A stretch of 33,196 nucleotides of DNA. Source: Pseudomonadota bacterium. GTDB taxonomy: Bacteria > Bdellovibrionota > FAC87 > UBA2466. Both the position numbers and the translations under genes were made by a program. This document shows positions 2-11,014 of the stretch, piece after piece; position 1 is the stretch's first letter, and every line of letters starts with the position of its first letter. The DNA lies in NCBI GenBank assembly GCA_043767805.1, contig JAYUGC010000079.1:1-33196 (forward strand), written 5' to 3'. The notes beneath the pieces were generated by a model, which saw nothing but the letters and a program-made list of their open reading frames with translations, ran no database searches and was not told where the DNA came from.

Positions 2-289
2 GCGGCCGAGCGCCGGCGCAAACAGTCCGGTCAGTGGGCTTTCTTACGGCTTTTGAACCGGATGCTCTTTCAAGGCGCCGAGCCCGAAGAGCGGCGGAAA
101 GTGTTCGAGCGGTTTTACTCACTCTCGCAAGGCTGCATCGAGCGCTTTTATGCGGGGCGGCTGACGACGTTCGACAAAGCGCGGATCCTCGTCGGTAAAC
201 CGCCCATCCCCGTGAGCCGCGCGCTCGAGTGCCTTCGAGAGGCGCCTCGCCGCGAAGGCTTTGGCGAGACAGGGGCGGTCTTTGGATAA
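2..289 (+). CDS. crtY: Lycopene beta-cyclase CrtY, C-terminal fragment (5' truncated by window edge)
   Basis: Frame is open from position 2: ...WAFLRLLNRMLF..AEPEERRKVFERFYSL....IERFYAGRLT..DKARILVGKPPIPV, the characteristic C-terminus of bacterial CrtY. Lies upstream of crtE/crtI/crtB-like genes. Confidence 0.88.
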   Translation, partial: AAERRRKQSGQWAFLRLLNRMLFQGAEPEERRKVFERFYSLSQGCIERFYAGRLTTFDKARILVGKPPIPVSRALECLREAPRREGFGETGAVFG

Positions 290-1298
290 GCAGGGGTTGC
301 CTACCTGCGGAGATTTGACGCCGCTTCTCGGCTTTCACGAGGATGCCGTATCCGATCTCGTTCAAGGCGCGCTACTGAGCCCGCTCAGTGAGTTTCTTAC
401 CCGGCCCGGCAAACAATTCCGCGGGCAGCTCGTGCGCTTGGCGTTCCGGCTTTCCGATTCGGCTTTGACGGTTCCCGAAAGCGAAGCCGAGCGCTGGTTC
501 GGTCTGGGTGCCGAGGTGCTCGAGCACATTCACGCGGGCTCGCTCGTTGTCGACGATATCCAGGACGGAAGCCTCCAGCGGCGTGGGGGACCCACCTTGC
601 ACCGCGAGCACGGCGTGCCGCTCGCTTTGAACGCCGGGAACTGGCTTTACTTTTGGCCGCTCGAGCGCGTCAAGACGTGGGGACTTCCGCCCGAGCGAGA
701 AGTGCGGGTCTATCAGGTTTGCCACGAGGCTTTGCTGCGGGCGCACTTCGGGCAGGCCCTCGATGTCGGCGTACCCATCGATGGGCTCGATCGTGGCCGC
801 ATTCCGGAAGTTTCCCTCGCGTCTTTAGAGCTGAAAACCGGCGCGCTCATGGCGCTCGCCACTCAGCTGGGGGGCGTGCTGGGCAACGCGAGCCCCCCGC
901 GGCTCGAAGTTTTAGGTGAGTTCGGTAAACGGTTTGGCATAGCGCTCCAGATGCTGGACGATCTCGGTAATTTCACCGGCAAGGCGGGGCAGCCGGCCAA
1001 GGCCGACTCGAAACGCTGGGAAGACTTGCGCCTCCGCCGGCCCTCCTGGGTTTGGGCCTCGGTCGCGCGCCATGGAACGCAGAGCGAGTTCGCCGAGTTC
1101 GTTTCCGCGGTGCGGGCGCTTCCCGAAGAAGCAAGGCTCTTGCCTTGGACCAAAGGCCCCTTCGTCGAAAAGGCCCGCGAGGAAGCCGACGCCTATCTGG
1201 AGAGCGCGCTTTCGGGGCTTGAGTCGGCGGTCGGCGCCGGGGTTTTTGTCGACGAGATTAAGCAACTGGGAAGGGCGCTCGCCAGGGCGTACCGCTAA
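261..1298 (+). CDS. crtE: Polyprenyl diphosphate (probably GGPP) synthase, CrtE-like
   Basis: GKQFRG, first Asp-rich motif HAGSLVVDDIQDGSLQRRGGPTLH, GQALD, KTGAL, second motif QMLDDLGN; crt context. Start may instead be the TTG at 282, which overlaps the crtY stop. Confidence 0.8.
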   Translation: MARQGRSLDKQGLPTCGDLTPLLGFHEDAVSDLVQGALLSPLSEFLTRPGKQFRGQLVRLAFRLSDSALTVPESEAERWFGLGAEVLEHIHAGSLVVDDIQDGSLQRRGGPTLHREHGVPLALNAGNWLYFWPLERVKTWGLPPEREVRVYQVCHEALLRAHFGQALDVGVPIDGLDRGRIPEVSLASLELKTGALMALATQLGGVLGNASPPRLEVLGEFGKRFGIALQMLDDLGNFTGKAGQPAKADSKRWEDLRLRRPSWVWASVARHGTQSEFAEFVSAVRALPEEARLLPWTKGPFVEKAREEADAYLESALSGLESAVGAGVFVDEIKQLGRALARAYR

Positions 1299-1306
1299 AG
1301 GACATT

Positions 1307-3808
1307 ATGAAGCCAAAAGTAGCCGTCATCGGAAGTGGATTTGGAGGACTGGCGAGCGCCATTCGTCTGAGAGCGCAGGGGTTTCCGGTCACGATCTTCG
1401 AAAAACGCGAATTACCTGGGGGGAGAGCTTACGTCTATCGTCAGGACGGCTTCACTTTCGATGCGGGGCCCACGGTGCTCACCGCTCCCGATTGCCTAAG
1501 CGAGCTTTTCGAGCTCTCCGGCCGTGCGATGAAGGATTATCTGGAGATGCTAAAGCTCTCCCCCATGTACCGGCTCCATTGGGAAGATGGGCTCGTTTTC
1601 GATTATTCGGACAGTGTCCAAGACACCATCGCCCAGATCGAGAAGATCAATCCCGAAGACGCCAAGAACTATCCGGCGTTTCTCGAGTACACGCGTCAAG
1701 TCTTCGTCGAGGGCTACGAGAAGCTCGCGCACGTTCCCTTCCTGAAGATTTCGAGCATGGTGAAAGTCGCGCCCCAGCTCTTGAAGCTCCAGGCGTACCG
1801 CACCGTCTATTCTATGGTGAGCAAGTATCTGAAGGACCCGCACTTGCGTCAGGCCTTCAGCTTTCACAGCCTGCTCGTCGGAGGCAATCCGTTTTCCGCC
1901 TCCGCGATTTACACGCTCATCCATTACCTCGAGAAGAAATGGGGCGTTTACTTCGTGAAGGGTGGCATGAACGCGGCCGTGGACGCTCTCGCCAGGCTTT
2001 TCACCGAGATGGGCGGGGAAATTCGTTACTCGGCTGAGGTCGACCGGATCGTCACCAAGGACGGCAAGGTTACCGGCCTCGTGTCTCAGGGCAGAGAAGA
2101 GGCTTTCGGCATCGTCGTCAGTAATGGCGACGTCGTGCACACCTACCAGAAGCTTCTGCGCGAGGAACCGGCGGTCGAGGGCACGAGAAAACATCTGCTC
2201 AACGCCCGCCATAGCCCGTCGCTCTTCGTGCTCTACTTCGGCACACGCCGTAAGTACCCGGGCCTTGCCCATCACAATATTTTGTTCGGGGCTCGCTACA
2301 AGGAGCTTTTGAACGATATTTTTCACAAGGGCGTTCTCGCCGACGATTTCTCGATTTACCTTCACGTGCCCACGGTCACCGATCCGAGTCTCGCACCGGA
2401 GGGCTGTGAAAATTTCTATGCGCTGTCTCCCGTGCCTCATCTCGGAAAGGCGGCGATCGACTGGAAGGTGGAAGGTCCGAAATACGCGGATAAAATTTTA
2501 GGTTATCTGGAGAAGCATTATCTTCCCGAAGTGCGGCGTGAGATCGTCACCCAGAAGTTCTTCACGCCGGATGATTTCAAGTACGAGCTCAACGCGCACC
2601 TGGGCTCGGCCTTTTCCCTGGAGCCCGTCCTTTGGCAGAGCGCCTACTTCCGCGTGCACAACCGGGACAGCCACATCAAGGGTCTCTATTTCGCGGGAGC
2701 CGGAACGCACCCTGGGGCGGGAATCCCTGGCGTCATCGGCAGCGCGAAAGCCACGGCTGGTCTGGTTGTCGACGATTACCACCTGGGTAACGTCGAGACT
2801 TTGGATCGCGTGGTGCAAGAGCAACGCGATGCTGAGGCGGCGATTCCGCTGGTGGTGAGGGGAGCCCAGCCCGCTCGCCCGGACGTGTCGCCGTCGGTGG
2901 CGGCCGCGCTCACGCAGTGCCGGAATATGATCAAAGTGGGCTCGAAGAGTTTCTCCATGGCCTCGCATTTGTTTGGAGAAGAGACGCGGGATGCAGCCCA
3001 CTTTCTATATGGGTGGTGCCGCTACGCCGACGACCAGGTGGACTCCGTGCGCGATCCGGTCGATCAGCTCATCCGGGTGGAGCAGCTCCGCTCGAAAACG
3101 GCGGACGCTTTTCGCGGCACTCCGGCGCCGGAGCCGGTTTTCGTGGCGCTCGCTCACATCGCCCAGCAGTATCGCATTCCGTCCTACTACGCCGAGGAGC
3201 TCCTGGAAGGCATGGCCATGGACGTCCGGCGGACGAGTTATGAAACCCCCCGCGACTTGAGTCTATATTGTTATCGGGTCGCCGGAACCGTGGGTCTCAT
3301 GATGAGTCACGTGATGGGAGTTTCTGACGAGAAAGCTCTGGAATATGCCGCCGCCATGGGAAGCGCCATGCAGCTTACCAATATCGCGCGCGACGTTCTG
3401 GAAGATTCCGCCATGGGCCGGGTTTATCTCCCCGTCGCCTGGCTGAGGGAAGAAGGTTTGAGCGAAGCAGACGTGGGCCGGCCCGAAAATCGGGCGGCGG
3501 TCGCGCGGGTGGTAAGCCGGCTCCTCGACTTGGCCGATCGCTACTACGCCATCGGTAACGACGGCATGAAGTTTCTTCCCTGGAGAGCCGCGGTGGCGGT
3601 GGGTACGGCGAGCGCGGTCTATAGCGACATCGGGCGAGTCGTGCGCGAGAAGGGCGCTCTTGCTTGGGATCACCGCGCGGTGGTGTCCAAAGGGCGGAAA
3701 GTAGTGATGGTGCTCAAAGGCCTGATGTTGACGCTCGCCACGGTGCCGTATCGGATAGCGAAACCCTTCCGTCCGGTCGCCTTGGACACGGTGTGGAGGC
3801 ACGCATGA
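1307..3808 (+). CDS. crtI-crtB: Fused phytoene desaturase (CrtI, about 1307-2780) and phytoene synthase (CrtB, about 2900-3808)
   Basis: N-part: VIGSGFGGL FAD-binding motif, FDAGPTV, FSFHSLLVGGNPF, GAGTHPGAGIPGV. C-part: GSKSF, WCRYADDQVD, YCYRVAGTVG, QLTNIARDVLED..GRVYLP. One continuous 833-aa frame; AAGGA RBS upstream. Confidence 0.93.
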   Translation: MKPKVAVIGSGFGGLASAIRLRAQGFPVTIFEKRELPGGRAYVYRQDGFTFDAGPTVLTAPDCLSELFELSGRAMKDYLEMLKLSPMYRLHWEDGLVFDYSDSVQDTIAQIEKINPEDAKNYPAFLEYTRQVFVEGYEKLAHVPFLKISSMVKVAPQLLKLQAYRTVYSMVSKYLKDPHLRQAFSFHSLLVGGNPFSASAIYTLIHYLEKKWGVYFVKGGMNAAVDALARLFTEMGGEIRYSAEVDRIVTKDGKVTGLVSQGREEAFGIVVSNGDVVHTYQKLLREEPAVEGTRKHLLNARHSPSLFVLYFGTRRKYPGLAHHNILFGARYKELLNDIFHKGVLADDFSIYLHVPTVTDPSLAPEGCENFYALSPVPHLGKAAIDWKVEGPKYADKILGYLEKHYLPEVRREIVTQKFFTPDDFKYELNAHLGSAFSLEPVLWQSAYFRVHNRDSHIKGLYFAGAGTHPGAGIPGVIGSAKATAGLVVDDYHLGNVETLDRVVQEQRDAEAAIPLVVRGAQPARPDVSPSVAAALTQCRNMIKVGSKSFSMASHLFGEETRDAAHFLYGWCRYADDQVDSVRDPVDQLIRVEQLRSKTADAFRGTPAPEPVFVALAHIAQQYRIPSYYAEELLEGMAMDVRRTSYETPRDLSLYCYRVAGTVGLMMSHVMGVSDEKALEYAAAMGSAMQLTNIARDVLEDSAMGRVYLPVAWLREEGLSEADVGRPENRAAVARVVSRLLDLADRYYAIGNDGMKFLPWRAAVAVGTASAVYSDIGRVVREKGALAWDHRAVVSKGRKVVMVLKGLMLTLATVPYRIAKPFRPVALDTVWRHA

Positions 3809-4392
3809 GCCAGTCTCGAACGTTTCTGCAGGACACCTGGTTCTACATTCGCCGCATGGACCAGTTTCAGCGAGGAGACTGGTGGGTATACTTTCTTTGG
3901 GTGGGGCAGATCTTTTCGCTATTCGCCGTCCTCTTGGCCTTCCTCCTGGTTGGCCATCGCGCCGGAGCGGTTTATCCCGCTTACGTCTGGAACATTCCCG
4001 TGGGAACGTTCATCTTCGCCATGGCGATTGCCATCGATACCATTGGCCATCGCACGGCGTACCGCCAGGCTCTCAAGAGCGGGGAAGAGCTCGTTCATCA
4101 CATTACGATTGCGGCGGGCATTTCGAGCTGCGTGCTACTTTGTCTGGCGTACACGTACCGGCAGTTCTTCATGATTCCGGCTCTGGTCCTGACGGGGCTC
4201 TCGATTTTCTACAGCGCCATCGACGAGGGGATGCACTGGTTCCGTTTCTTTCAGGGAAACTCCGATCGAGTGGAGATGTGGAGCCACTTTTTCATCTTCG
4301 TGGGCCACGTCATCATGATGAGCGCGTGGGTGCTCTGGTTCATGGAAGGGTATCCGGGAGTCGCGGCGACGCTGGTGGCGCTGGGGTACTAA
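3805..4392 (+). CDS. Uncharacterised polytopic membrane protein (195 aa) with duplicated D-x3-H-x12-E-x3-H motif; last gene of crt operon
   Basis: ATG at 3805 overlaps the crtIB stop (ATGA); GGAGG at 3795-3799; about five hydrophobic segments; motifs AIDTIGH...EELVHH and AIDEGMH...EMWSH. Confidence 0.8.
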   Translation: MSQSRTFLQDTWFYIRRMDQFQRGDWWVYFLWVGQIFSLFAVLLAFLLVGHRAGAVYPAYVWNIPVGTFIFAMAIAIDTIGHRTAYRQALKSGEELVHHITIAAGISSCVLLCLAYTYRQFFMIPALVLTGLSIFYSAIDEGMHWFRFFQGNSDRVEMWSHFFIFVGHVIMMSAWVLWFMEGYPGVAATLVALGY

Positions 4393-7300
4393 CTATTTCG
4401 CGACGTTCACACGGATGGTCGTGTTGGTGCCGTTGCTTTCCGACCAGGTGTTATAGAGCTTGATGCCGAACTGCAAGAGGAAGGGATTGCTGGCCGCGCG
4501 GTTCGTACTCTTATTCAAGCCGGAGAAGCCGTTGCCGTCGATAAACGTCCAAACGCCGGCGCCGGACTCGTTGCTCAGAACCGCGGCTCTCGTGTTTTGG
4601 GCCGCGCCGTTGGACTCGGTCCAGCTCGCATAGAGATAGTTGCTCAAAACGCCGAGCATGGGTTTCGAGGCGATGCGGGTAGGATCCTTGTTGAGGCCGA
4701 CGTCGGCCACGTTCCCGTCGACTTTCACCCAGTTAGTGGCGGCGCAGCTCGCGCCGTCGAAGCGGGCGACTCGGACCTGGGCGATACCCCCGGTGCTGTC
4801 CTCGGTCCAGGTCACGTAAACTTTGTTGTTATAGATGACCGCGCGAGGGTTTCTCGCGTGGTGAGTGAGATCGTGGTTCAAGCCGGTGCCGGTGGTGTAC
4901 TGCCAACCCGATGCGGTCTCATCCTCGTTACAGGCAACCTGAATCGTTTCTTTGTTGGTATTACTCGTCTCTTGCCAGGCCAGATAGATACGTCCGGCCA
5001 GAGTCACCATGGACGGCGCCAGCGCATTCTTGGAAGGGTTCACGTTAAGACCGTTCTCGGCGCTACCGGTATCGAAGTTGGACCAGATAACTCCGTCCCA
5101 CTTCTTCACCCGGATTTCCGTGTTGACCGAGGTGTTGAGCTCTAAAAAGGCGACGAAGAGGTTCGAGCCGCCCGCGGCCGGAGAAGGAGCGGTCGCTTGG
5201 TTCAAAACGTTGCGATTGAGACTGCCGCCGTCCATCGAGCTCCAAAGCGGAATGCTTCCGTCGCCGTTAAAGCGCTGAGCGCGGATCTGGCTGACTGCCG
5301 TGCCATTGAGCTCTTCCCATGTCATCCAAAGATCGGCGCCGAACACGACGGGCCTCGCCAGGTTCGCCCCGTGAGTCGGATCGTTATTGAGGCCGTCGGC
5401 AAGCCCTCCGTCCAGAGACGCCCAAACGGGCGCCGTATCGTTGCCGTTGAAACGGAAGGCCCGGATGTTATCGGCGGTACCGTTATTTTCCTGGGAGGTG
5501 ACGATGACAGAACCGTTGAACTCCACGAGCGACGGATTCTTCGCGTTCTTGGTGAGATCGTGGCCGATGCCGTCGGCGCCGTTACCGTCGACGAAAGTGC
5601 CGAAGGCCGCTTGGCGCCAGGTGAACCCGTTGGTGCCCGTCACGGTCTGCGCGTCGATGTTGGTCAAAACGATGTTGGTGGAGGTAGTCGGAGTGCCCGC
5701 CGGAGCGAGACAAGACAAAGTCGTGGCGTTGGAGACCAGCACGCTCGCGCAAGGTAAATTATTGATGGTGACGACGGCGCCGGCTCTAAAGCCCGTTCCC
5801 GTCACGGTAACGCGATCGCTGCCCATGAAGAACCCTTGGGTCGAGCTCGTGAACGTCGGCGGCGGGTTGTAAGTGTAGGCCGATGACAACGTTCCGGGGT
5901 AGGTGATGCCAGTATTTAAATCGCGATTGGTAACAACCACGTCCACAACTCCGCCACCGCCCGCGGCCGGCGTGCGGCAGGTCAACTGGGTAGTCGACAA
6001 GGCAATCAAGTTCGTGCAGGACTGGCCGCCAATGGAGACGAGCGAGCCCAGATTATAATTGGACCCCGTGACCGTGACCACCGTCGAGCCGGAGACGGGG
6101 CCTTCCGCCGGAGAAATGCTGGTGACGACGGGCGTAAAGGAAGGCGCGGTGTAGGTAAAGCCGCCGACCTGAGTGGCGGACGCCGTCAAGAGCGTGAGCA
6201 AATCGTGATTGGTGATGATGACGTCGGCGGCCGCGGCCGTCGCGCTGGACGGTGTGGTGCAGGATAGTGAAACCGAGGAGGTCACGACCACGTCCGTGCA
6301 ATTACGGCCGCCAACGGAGACCGTCGTGAAAAGGTCGAAGCCCGTGCCCGTGATGGTAACCGTCGTTCCGCCGGTTTGCGTACCGCTCGCGGGGGCGGTC
6401 AAAGTCAAAGTCGGGGTCACGAGATTGGTGAGATAGGTATATCCGCCCACCTGGGTCGCCGTCAGCGTCGCGAGCGTAATCGGATCGTGGTTGGTGACGA
6501 CCACGTTCACGGCTCCGGTGGAGACTTGAGAAGGGGTCGTGCAGGTCAGGGAGGTCGCGGAATTTACGACCACGTCTTTGCAATTGCGCGCGCCGATGGA
6601 AACCGTCGTGTAGAGATCGAAGTTCGTGCCCGTAAGGGTGACCGTAGTGCCGCCGCTTACCGTGCCGCTCACGGGAGACGTCAGTGTGACGCTAGGAGCC
6701 ACGACGTTGGCGGCGTAGGTAAAGCCGCCGACTTGGGTCGCCGACGCGGTGGCAAGCGTACTGGGCTCGTGGTTCGTAACTACGACGTTCACCGCGCCCG
6801 CCGCCGACTGAGACGGTGTCGTGCAACTAAGTGACGTCGACGAAGCCACGACCACATCCCTGCAGGTGCGGCCGCCCATGGCGACCGTCGTTTGTAAGTC
6901 AAAACCCGTACCCGTCAGAGTTACGGTAAGTCCGCCGACGACAGAGCCGCTTAGCGGAGTCGTCGCCGTGATCGTCGGCGTGACCAAGGCTGTCGTATAG
7001 TTGTAACCCGCGCCCAGCGTGCCGGAGCTGGTCAAAAGCGAAGTGAGGTCGCGGTTCGTCGCGATGATGGCGACGGGACCCGTCGCCGATTGCGAAGGCA
7101 CCGTACAGGTAAGTGAGGTCGACGAGATGGCAAGTACGTCCATGCAGGTGCGTCCGCCGAAGCTCACGGTCGAGGTCAAATTGAAATTCGTTCCGGTGAG
7201 AGTAACGATGGTGCCGCCATTCGTGGTGCCCGACGTGGGAGACACCGCGCTCACCGTCGGCGTGGTGAGAGTGAGGGGCCCCGTGCCGCCCGCCGCGGTA

Positions 7301-7668
7301 TAAGTAAAAGCGCCCACCAAATTCGCGCGCAGGCTCGTGCCAGTCGTGAAATCCCGATTCGTCACGGCCACGTCGACCGCGCCGAGAGAGCTCGCCGCGG
7401 GCGTTAGACAAGTCATCGTCGTAGGCGTGAGCGCGATGGAGACCAAGCAAGGAGCGTCACCGACGGTGACGGTCGCGGTCAGCGCAAACGAAGTGCCGGT
7501 CAAAGTGAGCAGCGTGCTCCCCGAGATGGTTCCGCTAGAGGGAGAAACCGTGGTCAGACCAGGTTGCACCACGGCGTCAGCCGAAATCGGCCGGGAACAG
7601 CTGGGCAAAGCCACGGCGGTGACCAGAAGAACAACCCAGGTAAGCTGACGACGTACTGCTAAGGGCAT
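4393..7668 (-). CDS. Large surface lipoprotein: 7 IPT/TIG domains plus C-terminal 7-repeat (probable beta-propeller) domain
   Basis: Signal peptide ending LPSC (lipobox-like); seven repeats of the P-x-I/V-x2-V-S-P-x2-G-x3-GGT-x-V-T-L-T-G-x-N/G-F type, each with a Cys pair; C-terminal repeats W..DG...GLN.D....A..P......LY..W.E.....IRV. Confidence 0.85.
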   Translation of the reverse strand: MPLAVRRQLTWVVLLVTAVALPSCSRPISADAVVQPGLTTVSPSSGTISGSTLLTLTGTSFALTATVTVGDAPCLVSIALTPTTMTCLTPAASSLGAVDVAVTNRDFTTGTSLRANLVGAFTYTAAGGTGPLTLTTPTVSAVSPTSGTTNGGTIVTLTGTNFNLTSTVSFGGRTCMDVLAISSTSLTCTVPSQSATGPVAIIATNRDLTSLLTSSGTLGAGYNYTTALVTPTITATTPLSGSVVGGLTVTLTGTGFDLQTTVAMGGRTCRDVVVASSTSLSCTTPSQSAAGAVNVVVTNHEPSTLATASATQVGGFTYAANVVAPSVTLTSPVSGTVSGGTTVTLTGTNFDLYTTVSIGARNCKDVVVNSATSLTCTTPSQVSTGAVNVVVTNHDPITLATLTATQVGGYTYLTNLVTPTLTLTAPASGTQTGGTTVTITGTGFDLFTTVSVGGRNCTDVVVTSSVSLSCTTPSSATAAAADVIITNHDLLTLLTASATQVGGFTYTAPSFTPVVTSISPAEGPVSGSTVVTVTGSNYNLGSLVSIGGQSCTNLIALSTTQLTCRTPAAGGGGVVDVVVTNRDLNTGITYPGTLSSAYTYNPPPTFTSSTQGFFMGSDRVTVTGTGFRAGAVVTINNLPCASVLVSNATTLSCLAPAGTPTTSTNIVLTNIDAQTVTGTNGFTWRQAAFGTFVDGNGADGIGHDLTKNAKNPSLVEFNGSVIVTSQENNGTADNIRAFRFNGNDTAPVWASLDGGLADGLNNDPTHGANLARPVVFGADLWMTWEELNGTAVSQIRAQRFNGDGSIPLWSSMDGGSLNRNVLNQATAPSPAAGGSNLFVAFLELNTSVNTEIRVKKWDGVIWSNFDTGSAENGLNVNPSKNALAPSMVTLAGRIYLAWQETSNTNKETIQVACNEDETASGWQYTTGTGLNHDLTHHARNPRAVIYNNKVYVTWTEDSTGGIAQVRVARFDGASCAATNWVKVDGNVADVGLNKDPTRIASKPMLGVLSNYLYASWTESNGAAQNTRAAVLSNESGAGVWTFIDGNGFSGLNKSTNRAASNPFLLQFGIKLYNTWSESNGTNTTIRVNVAK
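5620..7563 (-). repeat. Seven tandem IPT/TIG domain repeats (about 90-100 aa each)
   Basis: Repeat starts: PGLTTVSP, PTVSAVSP, PTITATTP, PSVTLTSP, PTLTLTAP, PVVTSISP, PTFTSST. Repeats 3-5 share TATQVGG/SATQVGG F/Y TY endings. Confidence 0.85.
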
Positions 7669-7839: not shown

Positions 7840-8325
7840 TTAGATCTTCACGGGCTTGCCGTTCGCGCCTATGAGCTCGAACTCCGCTTCGGTCACGGGC
7901 TGGACGGAAAGGCGGGATCCTTTTCTAAGGAGCACCATATCCTTTAGAGGGGCTAACTCTCGTAATTGAGCGAGAGGCAAAGGCGTACTGAAACGATGGG
8001 TGGCTTTCACGTCCACCACGCACCAGGGGGACTCGCCTTTGGCTTTGGCCTTGGGATCGAAGTACTCGCTCTTCGGATCGAGGGCGGCCGCATCGGGGTA
8101 GCCTTCGCGCACCACTTCGGCGAGGCCCACCACCGCCGAGGGCTCGGCGTTACTGTGATAGATGAGCACCCCATCTCCCTTTTTCAGCTCGTCGCGGAGC
8201 AGATTGCGGGCCTGGTAATTGCGCACGCCTTCCCAGTGAGTCGTGCGGCGGGGAGCCGCCACGAGATCCTCGAAAGAAAAAACGTCGGGCTCGGTTTTCA
8301 TCAGCCAGTATTTTCGTTTCGCCAT
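7840..8325 (-). CDS. EVE domain-containing protein (PUA-like, Thy28 family)
   Basis: KYWLMKTEPDVFSFEDL, WEGVRNYQARN, GDGVLIYHSN, YFDPK, RLSVQPVT are EVE signatures. Real start is probably the ATG at 8325 (MAKRKYW), not 8457. Confidence 0.92.
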   Translation of the reverse strand: MAKRKYWLMKTEPDVFSFEDLVAAPRRTTHWEGVRNYQARNLLRDELKKGDGVLIYHSNAEPSAVVGLAEVVREGYPDAAALDPKSEYFDPKAKAKGESPWCVVDVKATHRFSTPLPLAQLRELAPLKDMVLLRKGSRLSVQPVTEAEFELIGANGKPVKI

Positions 8326-8440
8326 GGGGAGCGAATACCAAAAGTGCACAGCTCTTGTCGAGCCTGAGCGGTGTCTAAGAACCGAAAGACTGTCGTGCCC
8401 CTTTTTGTTCCGCGCCGCACTTGGGCCCTTGCCCCTGCCG

Positions 8441-8456
8441 CGGAACGGCTCTTGCA
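8441..8456 (+). promoter_or_regulatory. Candidate sigma54 -24/-12 promoter for the Gly/Tyr-rich secreted protein
   Basis: CGGAACGGCTCTTGCA: GG-N10-GC spacing with TTGCA, about 90 nt upstream of ATG 8544. Confidence 0.5.
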
Positions 8457-8543
8457 ATGACCTAGATCAAAGATGTTTGGTGTGGATGGGTAACCGTGGA
8501 ACGCTTCGCTTTGCGATTCACGGTAGTCTCGGGAGGTGCTCGT

Positions 8544-9055: not shown

Positions 9056-11014
9056 ATGCCTTCTCTGATTCGTGCTTTTTTCCTCGGGGTTCTTTTTGCG
9101 GTGCTTCCTCTCCAAGCTTTGGGCGTTTCCGCCAAGGGGGGAATCGAAGCTTTGGGCCAGCAAAAGGTCTGGCTTAACGCCTCGCGACCCTTGAAGGGCG
9201 AGGACCTCCAAAATCGGCTGCTCGTTCTGCATTTCTGGAGTTACGGCTGTCTGGAATGTCTGGACGTCATGCAGGATCTCGCGGCCATCGAGGCCGAGCA
9301 GGGAGCCGCGGTCACGGTCATCCACGTGCACTCCCCCCAATTCGATCCCGAGAAGGAGACGGACTCGCTCCGATCCGCGCTGCTGAAAAATGACATCCGC
9401 GGCCTGGTGGTGAAGGACAGTTCCCTTGCCGTTCTCAATGCGTTTGCGTTGCGGGCGCGGCCTTCGCTCGTACTCGTGAGGCCGACAGGAGAGCAAGAGC
9501 GCATCTACACGGGATCGGGGCAGGGAGAAAAAGTGCGGCGGGATGTCGCGCGCCTGGTCGAAGAGTACGGCAAGAAGTTGAATCGCGATCCGCTCCCCCG
9601 CTCATGGGAAGGGGCGACGGAAAAAAGCACGGGCGCGCTTCGCTTTCCGGGAAAACTCATTTATGCCCTCGACCCGAAGGGGGAAGGCCTTCTTTTCATT
9701 TCCGACGCGGGCCACAACCGCGTTCTGGGCGTTGTCGCTTCAGGGCCGGAAGCGGGTAACGTCCGCTATCGTCTCGGCGTTTCAGGTCAGCCGGGGAGTA
9801 CCGACGGATCTTTCGCCGACGCTCGCTTCAAGCAGCCTTCGGGTTTGTTTTACGACGGGGGAATGCTGTATGTCGCCGATCGCGGGGGCCACACCATCCG
9901 GAAGGCTGATTTCGCGAGCGGGCAAGTGACCACAGTCGCGGGCACCGGCGATCGAAAAACGATCCTCAATTTCAAAGGCGCTGGTGCGCTGCGGACGCCC
10001 GTCGCTTTTCCCTACGACGTGGCGGAATCGCCCAATCCAAATGAGCTGGCGATCTCTCTTGGCTCCGGCACGCAGATCTGGAGCTACAGTCCCGAGCGCG
10101 GGTTACTCACCGTTCTGGCGAGCCGCGAGACTCCGGGCTTGGAAGACATCGCCACGCCCGACAGCCTGCCGTTTCAGCCCACGGGAATTACCACTTTCCA
10201 GAATGAGCTCTACTTCGCCGATTCCGAAGCGTGCATGCTGGGAACGCTGAAGCAAAAAAAGGCGGACATTTTGATGGGTAAAGGCTCTCTCCCTTTCGGC
10301 TTCTCCGACGGAAACCGACTGAAGGGCATGCTGCAGTACCCCACCTCTCTTTTCGCGGACGCTTCCGGTCTCTACGTGGCAGACACTTTCAATCACGCCA
10401 TCCGCCGCTTCGATCGCGCGACGGGAAAGCTCGAGACCATAGCGGGGGACGGCAAGCCGGGCCGCGAGATGGGCCAGCTCCGGCTCTCTCGTTTCAACGA
10501 GCCCTCGGGCGTCACCAAGGTCGGAGACATTCTCTATGTTTCCGATACGAACAATCACCGCATTCAAATGCTCGATTTGAAAAAGCACGCGGTGCGCCCG
10601 TTTCCCGTGCACGAAACGGCTTCCGACTCTCGGCGGCTTTCGCAGGTCTTGCCCAATACCAAATCGGTTCCCAGCCAAAAATTCAAAGCGGGGGCGCCGA
10701 TCCCCATGCGGATAGCGCTGCCGGCCGGGTGGATTTGGGACGCGAAGGCGCCCAGCTACCTCGCGCTCTTCGAGATGGGCAATCCTCCGCAGATGATAAA
10801 GGAGTGGATCGGCGAAACGTTGCGGGCGTCCTCGCTTCAACTGCCGCCGCTCCGTCGCACGGCCGTTTACCGGCTTCAGGGAACTCTGCATTACTGTGAG
10901 GCCAAGGACCCGCAGGTCTGTGCTTTCGAAAGCCGTGACATGGACCTGCAGGGCGTAAAGAAATCCCCGCTCCGTAAGCTGGACGTGGTGTTGTCAGTCC
11001 TGCAACGTTCTTGA
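9056..11014 (+). CDS. Thioredoxin-like plus NHL-repeat beta-propeller protein (NHLRC2/SOQ1-like architecture), with signal peptide
   Basis: LHFWSYGCLEC, VIHVHSPQF..EK, LRFPGKL, LFISDAGHNRV, LYVADTFNHAIR, FNEPSG, LYVSDTNNHRI; C-terminal YC...C domain. Confidence 0.88.
   Translation: MPSLIRAFFLGVLFAVLPLQALGVSAKGGIEALGQQKVWLNASRPLKGEDLQNRLLVLHFWSYGCLECLDVMQDLAAIEAEQGAAVTVIHVHSPQFDPEKETDSLRSALLKNDIRGLVVKDSSLAVLNAFALRARPSLVLVRPTGEQERIYTGSGQGEKVRRDVARLVEEYGKKLNRDPLPRSWEGATEKSTGALRFPGKLIYALDPKGEGLLFISDAGHNRVLGVVASGPEAGNVRYRLGVSGQPGSTDGSFADARFKQPSGLFYDGGMLYVADRGGHTIRKADFASGQVTTVAGTGDRKTILNFKGAGALRTPVAFPYDVAESPNPNELAISLGSGTQIWSYSPERGLLTVLASRETPGLEDIATPDSLPFQPTGITTFQNELYFADSEACMLGTLKQKKADILMGKGSLPFGFSDGNRLKGMLQYPTSLFADASGLYVADTFNHAIRRFDRATGKLETIAGDGKPGREMGQLRLSRFNEPSGVTKVGDILYVSDTNNHRIQMLDLKKHAVRPFPVHETASDSRRLSQVLPNTKSVPSQKFKAGAPIPMRIALPAGWIWDAKAPSYLALFEMGNPPQMIKEWIGETLRASSLQLPPLRRTAVYRLQGTLHYCEAKDPQVCAFESRDMDLQGVKKSPLRKLDVVLSVLQRS

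Follow-up and report, generated by a model that had tools for sequence, protein, structure and literature searches.

Analyses of a 33,196-nucleotide (nt) window, which is one entire 33-kb contig (JAYUGC010000079.1) of a Bdellovibrionota metagenome assembly (GCA_043767805.1; 204 contigs, 4.5 Mb, 100% complete), revealed that phytoene desaturase (CrtI) and phytoene synthase (CrtB) are encoded there by one gene, referred to here as crtIB. The two coding parts are truly fused, in one frame, and this is the usual state of the gene in the family Pseudobdellovibrionaceae. As judged from its domains and gene neighbourhood, crtIB probably encodes a bifunctional enzyme that converts geranylgeranyl diphosphate (GGPP) to lycopene. 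Bacterial CrtIB fusions of this kind have been described since 2023 and are common in metagenome data.

The crtIB gene and its domains

The gene, its parts and its translation signal are located in the window as follows:

1307..3808 (+): crtIB, phytoene desaturase fused to phytoene synthase; ATG start, one open reading frame (ORF), 833 amino acids (aa) plus stop
1307..2785 (+): CrtI domain, phytoene desaturase dependent on flavin adenine dinucleotide (FAD); residues 1-493, from TIGR02734 and the 4dgk alignment
2780..2899 (+): linker, hypervariable and predicted to be disordered; residues 492-531, about 40 aa
2900..3805 (+): CrtB domain, SQS_PSY-family phytoene synthase; residues 532-833, PF00494, with CrtB as the best NCBIfam model
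1298..1302 (+): Shine-Dalgarno-like AAGGA, 4 nt ahead of the crtIB ATG

The ORF listing and the translation gave zero internal stops in the 833-aa frame. The N-terminal part was matched by Pfam Amino_oxidase at residues 13-487 (152 bits, cut-off 19.8), by Pfam NAD_binding_8 at residues 7-67 and by the NCBIfam model crtI_fam TIGR02734 at residues 5-493 (660 bits, cut-off 238.1, covering 1-494 of the 504 profile positions), a score above the curated cut-off that places crtIB in the CrtI-type desaturase family. The solved CrtI of PDB entry 4dgk, 'Phytoene dehydrogenase', pairs its residues 1-491 with crtIB residues 1-491 (E 1.4e-188), and this end-to-end alignment, together with the lycopene cyclase gene upstream, suggests that the CrtI domain would carry out the four-step desaturation of phytoene to lycopene.

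The C-terminal part was matched by Pfam PF00494 (SQS_PSY) at residues 543-796, with 249.8 bits against a gathering score of 26 and with profile positions 2-262 of 263 covered. Among the SQS_PSY-type NCBIfam models CrtB (NF042419) ranks first with 276.2 bits at residues 535-812, followed by HpnD with 186 bits and HpnC with 137 bits; the domain belongs to the phytoene/squalene synthase family and is most probably a CrtB. The polypeptide terminates about 20 aa past the SQS_PSY domain and carries no third, C-terminal lycopene cyclase domain.

Conservation of the motifs was determined in alignments of 28 and of 66 fused homologues (40-83% identity). Residues 7-14 read VIGSGFGG, which we take to be the N-terminal FAD-binding GxGxxG Rossmann motif; its glycines G9, G11 and G14 are invariant in the 28 homologues and at least 90% conserved in the 66. 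In the CrtB domain, residues D575, D576, D579, N692, R695, D696, D700, R705 and Y707 are invariant across the 66 homologues. They include the two Asp-rich motifs ADDQVD (D575, D576, D579) and ARDVLED (D696, D700), presumably substrate- and Mg-binding, which line up with RADDIVD and RDIGED of PDB entries 8is6 (CrtM) and 5iys (phytoene synthase). The AlphaFold2 model of crtIB, built from an alignment of 66 sequences, had a mean predicted local distance difference test score (pLDDT) of 89.9 and a predicted template modelling score (pTM) of 0.62, and most of the CrtI domain exceeded a pLDDT of 90.

The linker between the domains

Residues 495-523 of crtIB are the only stretch of that model with a pLDDT below 50. 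Alignment of the fused homologues revealed that the linker columns (about 510-575) have neither length nor sequence in common: the inter-domain linker ranges from 2 to 40 aa, those of crtIB and its two closest relatives being among the longest, while the shortest, of 2-4 aa, occur in P0048, P0020 and P0049. Such a hypervariable, disordered linker is more in keeping with a flexible tether than with a fixed inter-domain tunnel, and two well-folded domains on a flexible tether, as modelled, would favour co-localisation and a fixed stoichiometry.

Proposed function of crtIB

We consider it very probable that crtIB is a bifunctional enzyme of about 92 kDa (an estimate from 833 aa) which leads from GGPP to lycopene by proximity coupling on a flexible tether rather than through a fixed tunnel, which was born from overlapping crtI and crtB genes and which has become the standard form in its family. 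The upstream CrtE would make GGPP, two molecules of which would be condensed to phytoene by the C-terminal CrtB domain; the N-terminal CrtI domain, as a membrane-associated FAD enzyme, would take phytoene to lycopene in four steps, and the separately encoded CrtY would cyclise the lycopene. The flexible and unconstrained tether would fix a 1:1 ratio and hold both enzymes at the membrane, where the lipophilic intermediate would stay. An ordinary crtI-crtB pair with overlapping stop and start codons would have been fused by a small change at the junction, and the fused gene would then have become standard in the family. The two enzymatic activities of crtIB, its product and a kinetic gain, if any, are inferred from these data.

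Several points weigh against this reading. The CrtB domain did not reach the equivalog cut-off of NF042419, which is 480, and whether its specificity is C40 or C30 is consequently judged from the gene context; that GGPP (C20) and not farnesyl diphosphate would be its substrate is indicated by context only, that is, by the adjacent upstream polyprenyl synthase gene and the lycopene cyclase gene. Neither the pTM nor the range of linker lengths points to a fixed interface of the two domains, and true channelling is unsupported by the model. No enzyme assay of any bacterial CrtIB was found in the searchable literature. Internal initiation or cleavage in the linker might also yield two separate enzymes, which we regard as unlikely.

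In that last case one ORF would give two proteins, CrtI and CrtB being freed by internal initiation or by proteolysis in the linker, and the fusion would have no catalytic consequence. The disordered and unconstrained linker would allow this, as would the in-frame GTG (2885) and ATG (2927), which sit near the start of the CrtB domain. Against it, no GGAG or AGGA box was found by reading the sequence 5-10 nt ahead of any in-frame start in the linker, nor does a Shine-Dalgarno-like box stand at that distance from GTG 2885 or ATG 2927; the only purine-rich box in the linker, GAGGGGAG at 2857-2864, falls 20 nt short of the next in-frame GTG (2885). The sole promoter-like match, at 3240-3269, lies within the CrtB domain and is at chance level (one such match, where shuffled sequences gave 0.5 on average), and the linkers of 2-4 aa in P0048, P0020 and P0049 would leave scant room for a processing site.

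Still less probable, and to our judgement a slight chance, is that the C-terminal domain is, instead of a C40 phytoene synthase, a synthase of the C30 (CrtM) or squalene (HpnC/HpnD) type, or that either domain is a remnant without catalytic function. The missed equivalog cut-off and the scores of the HpnD and HpnC models would agree with this, and CrtM (8is6) is among the closest solved structures of the CrtB domain. On the contrary, CrtB is the top NCBIfam model, the N-terminal domain is closely related to a C40 CrtI, the flanking genes are of the GGPP synthase and lycopene cyclase types, the catalytic residues are invariant in both domains, and the genome contains no other SQS_PSY gene.

The first-pass annotation of the window had reported a complete CrtI, a linker of about 40 aa and a complete CrtB in one frame, with both sets of motifs intact and no well-spaced ribosome-binding site ahead of the CrtB part; this observation is correct in every detail, and the likely function that it proposed, GGPP to lycopene, is supported by the domain matches and the neighbouring genes. 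Its suggestion that phytoene may be channelled is not supported by the analyses made here. The probably bifunctional crtIB and its homologues would offer compact single-gene GGPP-to-lycopene modules with natural linkers of 2-40 aa for pathway engineering, and they leave the existing picture of carotenoid biosynthesis unchanged.

Fused and split genes in the family and in assembled reads

To survey the family, stop-to-stop ORFs of the fetched loci were translated and searched with each half of crtIB. The family is named Pseudobdellovibrionaceae (Bdellovibrionota) in related records; the genus-mate locus L016 is labelled uncultured Pseudobdellovibrionaceae bacterium, and the records of other fused loci give Bdellovibrionaceae, Bdellovibrionales or 'Deltaproteobacteria'. 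Both halves were found within one ORF in 20 of the 33 other family genomes (G001, G005-G008, G011, G012, G015, G016, G018, G020-G022, G024, G026-G029, G031 and G033). The gene is interrupted by contig ends in G004 and G014, in a pattern consistent with fusion, while G010 and G017, both of genus g10, carry split crtI and crtB, and no close match to crtIB was found in eight of the 33. In G025 crtIB is present in fragments with stops (contigs C251/C232). A comparable observation was made at L083 (G037:C2), where crtI lies in pieces of different frames beside an intact crtB; the G037 pieces and the G025 stops may represent decaying carotenoid operons or assembly errors.

Contigs assembled by Logan from other samples also span the linker. 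Those from runs X2 and X3 (855 nt, 2457-3311) and from run X4 (151 nt, 2773-2923) showed 0 differences and 0 gaps. Runs X1-X4 all belong to one study. The source sample is probably X1, and the same data set may have been filed twice, as X2 and as X3; RNA data were not present among the runs listed as carrying crtIB sequence. The fusion is taken as genuine because fused homologues occur in protein databases and in related genomes and because contigs of other samples run across the linker. The alternative that two ordinary genes were joined by a sequencing or assembly error, through loss of a stop or a shift of frame, an idea which a 204-contig metagenome source and split relatives with overlapping stop and start codons (a single-base error being enough) might invite, is rejected with near certainty on the same single ORF in the 20 other family genomes (58-79% identity), the two-domain protein clusters of several sources described below and the contigs that cover 2457-3311 without gap or difference.

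CrtI-CrtB fusions in protein databases and in other phyla

In a search of 5.8 billion proteins, both Pfam domains were present in 66 of the 120 best clusters listed, the query included. These fused clusters, which stem from NCBI, JGI, ENA and Logan, measure 760-838 aa in nearly all cases (one, P0072, is partial with 590 aa); the full-length members share 49-83% identity with the query. An exhaustive search of 1.84 billion representatives was evaluated for its best 150 matches, of which 16 were at least 590 aa long and 15 of these were scanned with Pfam; P0009 is the query's own cluster. CrtI followed by CrtB was found in eight of the 15 scanned, namely P0121, P0122, P0124, P0130, P0161 (a fragment), P0184, P0248 (1222 aa) and P0260, and the reverse order, CrtB then CrtI, in two, the metagenome proteins P0188 (814 aa) and P0205 (591 aa); the sequences of the latter show that the two domains have been fused the other way round too. 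P0121 comes from a Myxococcota metagenome-assembled genome, and P0124 (806 aa) corresponds to RefSeq WP_321986442.1, by name a 'phytoene desaturase family protein', from an uncultured Lichenicoccus sp. (Alphaproteobacteria). P0121, P0122, P0124, P0130, P0184 and P0260 share the two-domain architecture of crtIB and were deposited under generic names. These other public fusions differ from crtIB in having only 29-43% identity to it over the matched stretches and, in P0188 and P0205, in their opposite order.

Among 301 sampled Verrucomicrobiota genomes 38 gave a strong match, and one of the 11 loci examined there contained a fused ORF (L075 of G138, 774 aa). Fusions in loci of Chloroflexota, Myxococcales, Chthoniobacterales, Methylophilales and Pleurocapsa were suggested by tblastn matches over both halves; by the stop-to-stop ORF check all of L021-L063 have adjacent separate genes or one domain only and hence no fusion. 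The genomes G059 and G054, with open-frame values of 788 and 810 aa, were likewise discarded as fusions, a stop being located between crtI and crtB in both.

The first-pass annotation had named a stop or frameshift in the linker, or relatives that were all split, as what would speak against its reading. The contigs of other samples contain no stop or frameshift across the linker, and the relatives are not all split, 20 of the 33 other family genomes being fused. It had further named the case that the fusion was common and already described, and this largely applies: its view of bacterial fusions as unfamiliar and possibly rare is contradicted by the 2023 report from Verrucomicrobiota (PMC10284914), by the 66 fused among the 120 listed clusters and by the usual state in the family. 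Taken as a whole, its reading is partly supported.

Origin of the fusion

The split relatives of the same CrtI/CrtB lineage (genus g10 of the same family and family f2 of the same order) showed a crtI stop that overlaps the likely crtB start, by 4 nt in L078, L079 and L084 and by 8 or 11 nt in L080-L082. Fusion of the two genes would therefore require no more than a one-base indel or a lost stop codon. At L076 crtB follows crtI immediately and in frame (junction TGAATG), one stop codon short of fusion. The fused lineage and its split relatives together suggest that the fusion easily arises from overlapping genes.

Phylogenetic trees of the single domains were constructed as quick LG+G4 trees (92 rows for CrtI and 67 rows for CrtB) and have low backbone support. 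In both trees the other fused proteins fall in different clades beside unfused ones. The verrucomicrobial L075 pairs with unf_P0132 in the CrtI tree (99*) and with L071/L073 in the CrtB tree (90), P0066 groups with the split locus L066 in both, and P0122 groups with L065; fused proteins of the Bdellovibrionota type and the split genes of g10 and f2 fall into one broad group. These positions suggest several independent origins of the CrtI-CrtB fusion. L075 is probably independent because it lies beside unfused sequences and away from the Bdellovibrionota clade in both trees, and L075 and the Bdellovibrionota crtIB are probably separate fusions; common descent of the fused gene in the two was not recovered in these quick trees with their low backbone support. 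In a 57-row CrtI tree, which addressed a single origin of the Bdellovibrionota-type fused proteins, the fewest changes between the fused and the unfused state were 8, some 'unfused' metagenome proteins being possibly truncated gene calls, and forcing the 27 fused rows into one clade cost 57 log-likelihood units (approximately unbiased test, AU p = 0.06).

Per-domain trees including CrtIBY had been proposed in the first-pass annotation. The CrtIBY-sized P0248 (1222 aa) is far from crtIB in both trees, and the several fused lineages that appear in them do not bear out the rarity of the fusion. The crtIB of this window is probably an independent, new fusion lineage, as its tree positions suggest. 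The chances are evenly balanced for a wider account, according to which the Bdellovibrionota crtIB is independent and fixed in the family and is one of at least five bacterial CrtI-CrtB fusions (plus two of reverse order), each produced by a minimal change at a stop/start overlap, with fused and split (g10) forms coexisting and gene X, described below, always following them. If this is true, the fused and split forms with the same gene X would be a natural matched set in which the effect of tethering synthase to desaturase on flux could be tested, and the same set would also serve to find the effect of X on the product.

Comparison with known fusions

A putative natural crtIB fusion has been reported in verrucomicrobial proteorhodopsin (PR-1) operons, e.g. 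that of Candidatus Pelagisphaera phototrophica (ISME J 2023, PMC10284914); its function was predicted, and the accessible portion describes no enzyme assay. A full-text search for crtIB and related phrases gave this paper alone for a natural bacterial CrtIB fusion. No paper on Bdellovibrionota carotenoid genes that mentions a fusion was found in the literature search, as far as the accessible text of such papers goes; according to a preprint, the source of the xanthorhodopsin Kin4B8 is an uncultured Bdellovibrionota bacterium. To the known natural CrtIB fusions the present data add a well-sampled bacterial lineage (about 20 genomes) with split close relatives.

The verrucomicrobial crtIB and the one described here are alike in forming one ORF with N-terminal CrtI and C-terminal CrtB in an operon with crtE and crtY. 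On the contrary, the verrucomicrobial operon contains a rhodopsin gene and blh, neither of which was found in the genome studied here, and the verrucomicrobial L075 belongs to another phylum and has 44% (CrtI) and 32% (CrtB) identity to crtIB. The thraustochytrid CrtIBY shares the I-then-B order in one polypeptide, while it is eukaryotic, has 1268 aa and carries a third, CrtYc/d cyclase domain, the cyclase being here a separate upstream gene of CrtY type. This trifunctional protein produced beta-carotene in yeast (PMC5924542), and therefore fusions of I-B order can be active; CrtIBY is also essential for pigment in A. limacinum (PMC10016063). The ordinary bacterial CrtI (4dgk) and CrtB, encoded by adjacent genes, have the same full-length conserved domains and the same I-B order as crtIB, which differs from them in the covalent joining through a variable linker. 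Two literature hits were set aside: 'CrtIb' in PMC9907078 denotes a subfamily and not a fusion, and PMC10016063, as a possible source on bacterial CrtIB, deals in its accessible portion with the eukaryotic CrtIBY.

The crt operon and gene X

The genes that surround crtIB in the operon are the following:

2..289 (+): 3' part of the lycopene cyclase gene crtY, truncated where the contig begins; matched by Pfam PF05834 (Lycopene_cycl) over profile positions 309-379 of 380, E 7.8e-15
261..1298 (+): crtE-like polyprenyl (GGPP) synthase gene; Pfam polyprenyl_synt, E 2e-37; the limits are those of the ORF, the true start codon being uncertain
3805..4392 (+): gene X (P0270), conserved His-rich membrane protein of 195 aa; its ATG overlaps the crtIB stop (ATGA)

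The order is thus crtY-crtE-crtIB-X, followed by a convergent TIG-domain gene, and the TAA stop of crtE (1296-1298) is located 8 nt ahead of the crtIB ATG. The same order of the crt operon was found in the genus-mate locus L016, which carries a full-length crtY (2001..3599) and crtE (3592..4602). Its crtIB is 79% identical to that of the window and its gene X 88%, i.e. gene X is better conserved than crtIB.

Gene X is translationally coupled to crtIB through the ATGA overlap. Its translation, which is His-rich and resembles a membrane protein, contains twice the pattern D-x3-H-x12-E-x3-H; no Pfam or NCBIfam family was matched, and the protein-atlas search gave unnamed clusters only. Wherever an f1 or f2 locus reaches far enough, a homologue of gene X (53-89% identity) lies directly 3' of crtIB or crtB, and the same holds for L086 (family f14), whether the crt genes are fused or split; none was seen in the examined crt loci of other phyla. 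Gene X is a candidate carotenoid-modifying enzyme. The long Arg/Gly/His-rich open frame at 3882..4463 (+), 51% identical in the genus-mate, was rejected as a gene, being a non-coding shadow frame of gene X.

The PF00494 profile gave a single match in the host genome, inside crtIB, and was positive in eight of 14 control genomes in the same search. As no SQS_PSY match was obtained outside crtIB in this genome, any carotenoid synthesis in the organism depends on the fused CrtB. A second CrtI-like amine-oxidase paralogue (L002, G000:C200:985-2550) has about 540-580 aa and 26-29% identity to the CrtI domain; paralogues of this type are present in most family genomes, including some without crtIB.

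Rhodopsin (PF01036), heliorhodopsin (PF18761) and blh (PF15461) were not matched in the host genome, nor in the control genomes. The PF01036 search gave matches in 11 of 61 genomes searched, the host genome being among the 61, and nine of these 11 are among the 33 other family genomes; none was found in the genus of the host. A link to rhodopsin and retinal as in Verrucomicrobiota was rejected, with no rhodopsin, heliorhodopsin or blh in the host genome or the genus-mate. Because none of these genes was found in the genome, the product of the crt operon is most likely a carotenoid pigment and not retinal. In two Bdellovibrionota genomes of other families, at L076 (G059:C42) and at L077/L099 (G054:C127), split crtI/crtB share their contig with a rhodopsin gene that is no more than a few kb away.

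Convergent to the crt operon, at 4393-7668 (-), a protein of 1091 aa with seven IPT/TIG domains is encoded, which is conserved in the genus-mate. Farther along, the window encodes an EVE-domain protein (7840-8457, -) and a protein that combines NHL repeats with a thioredoxin-like domain (9056-11014, +).

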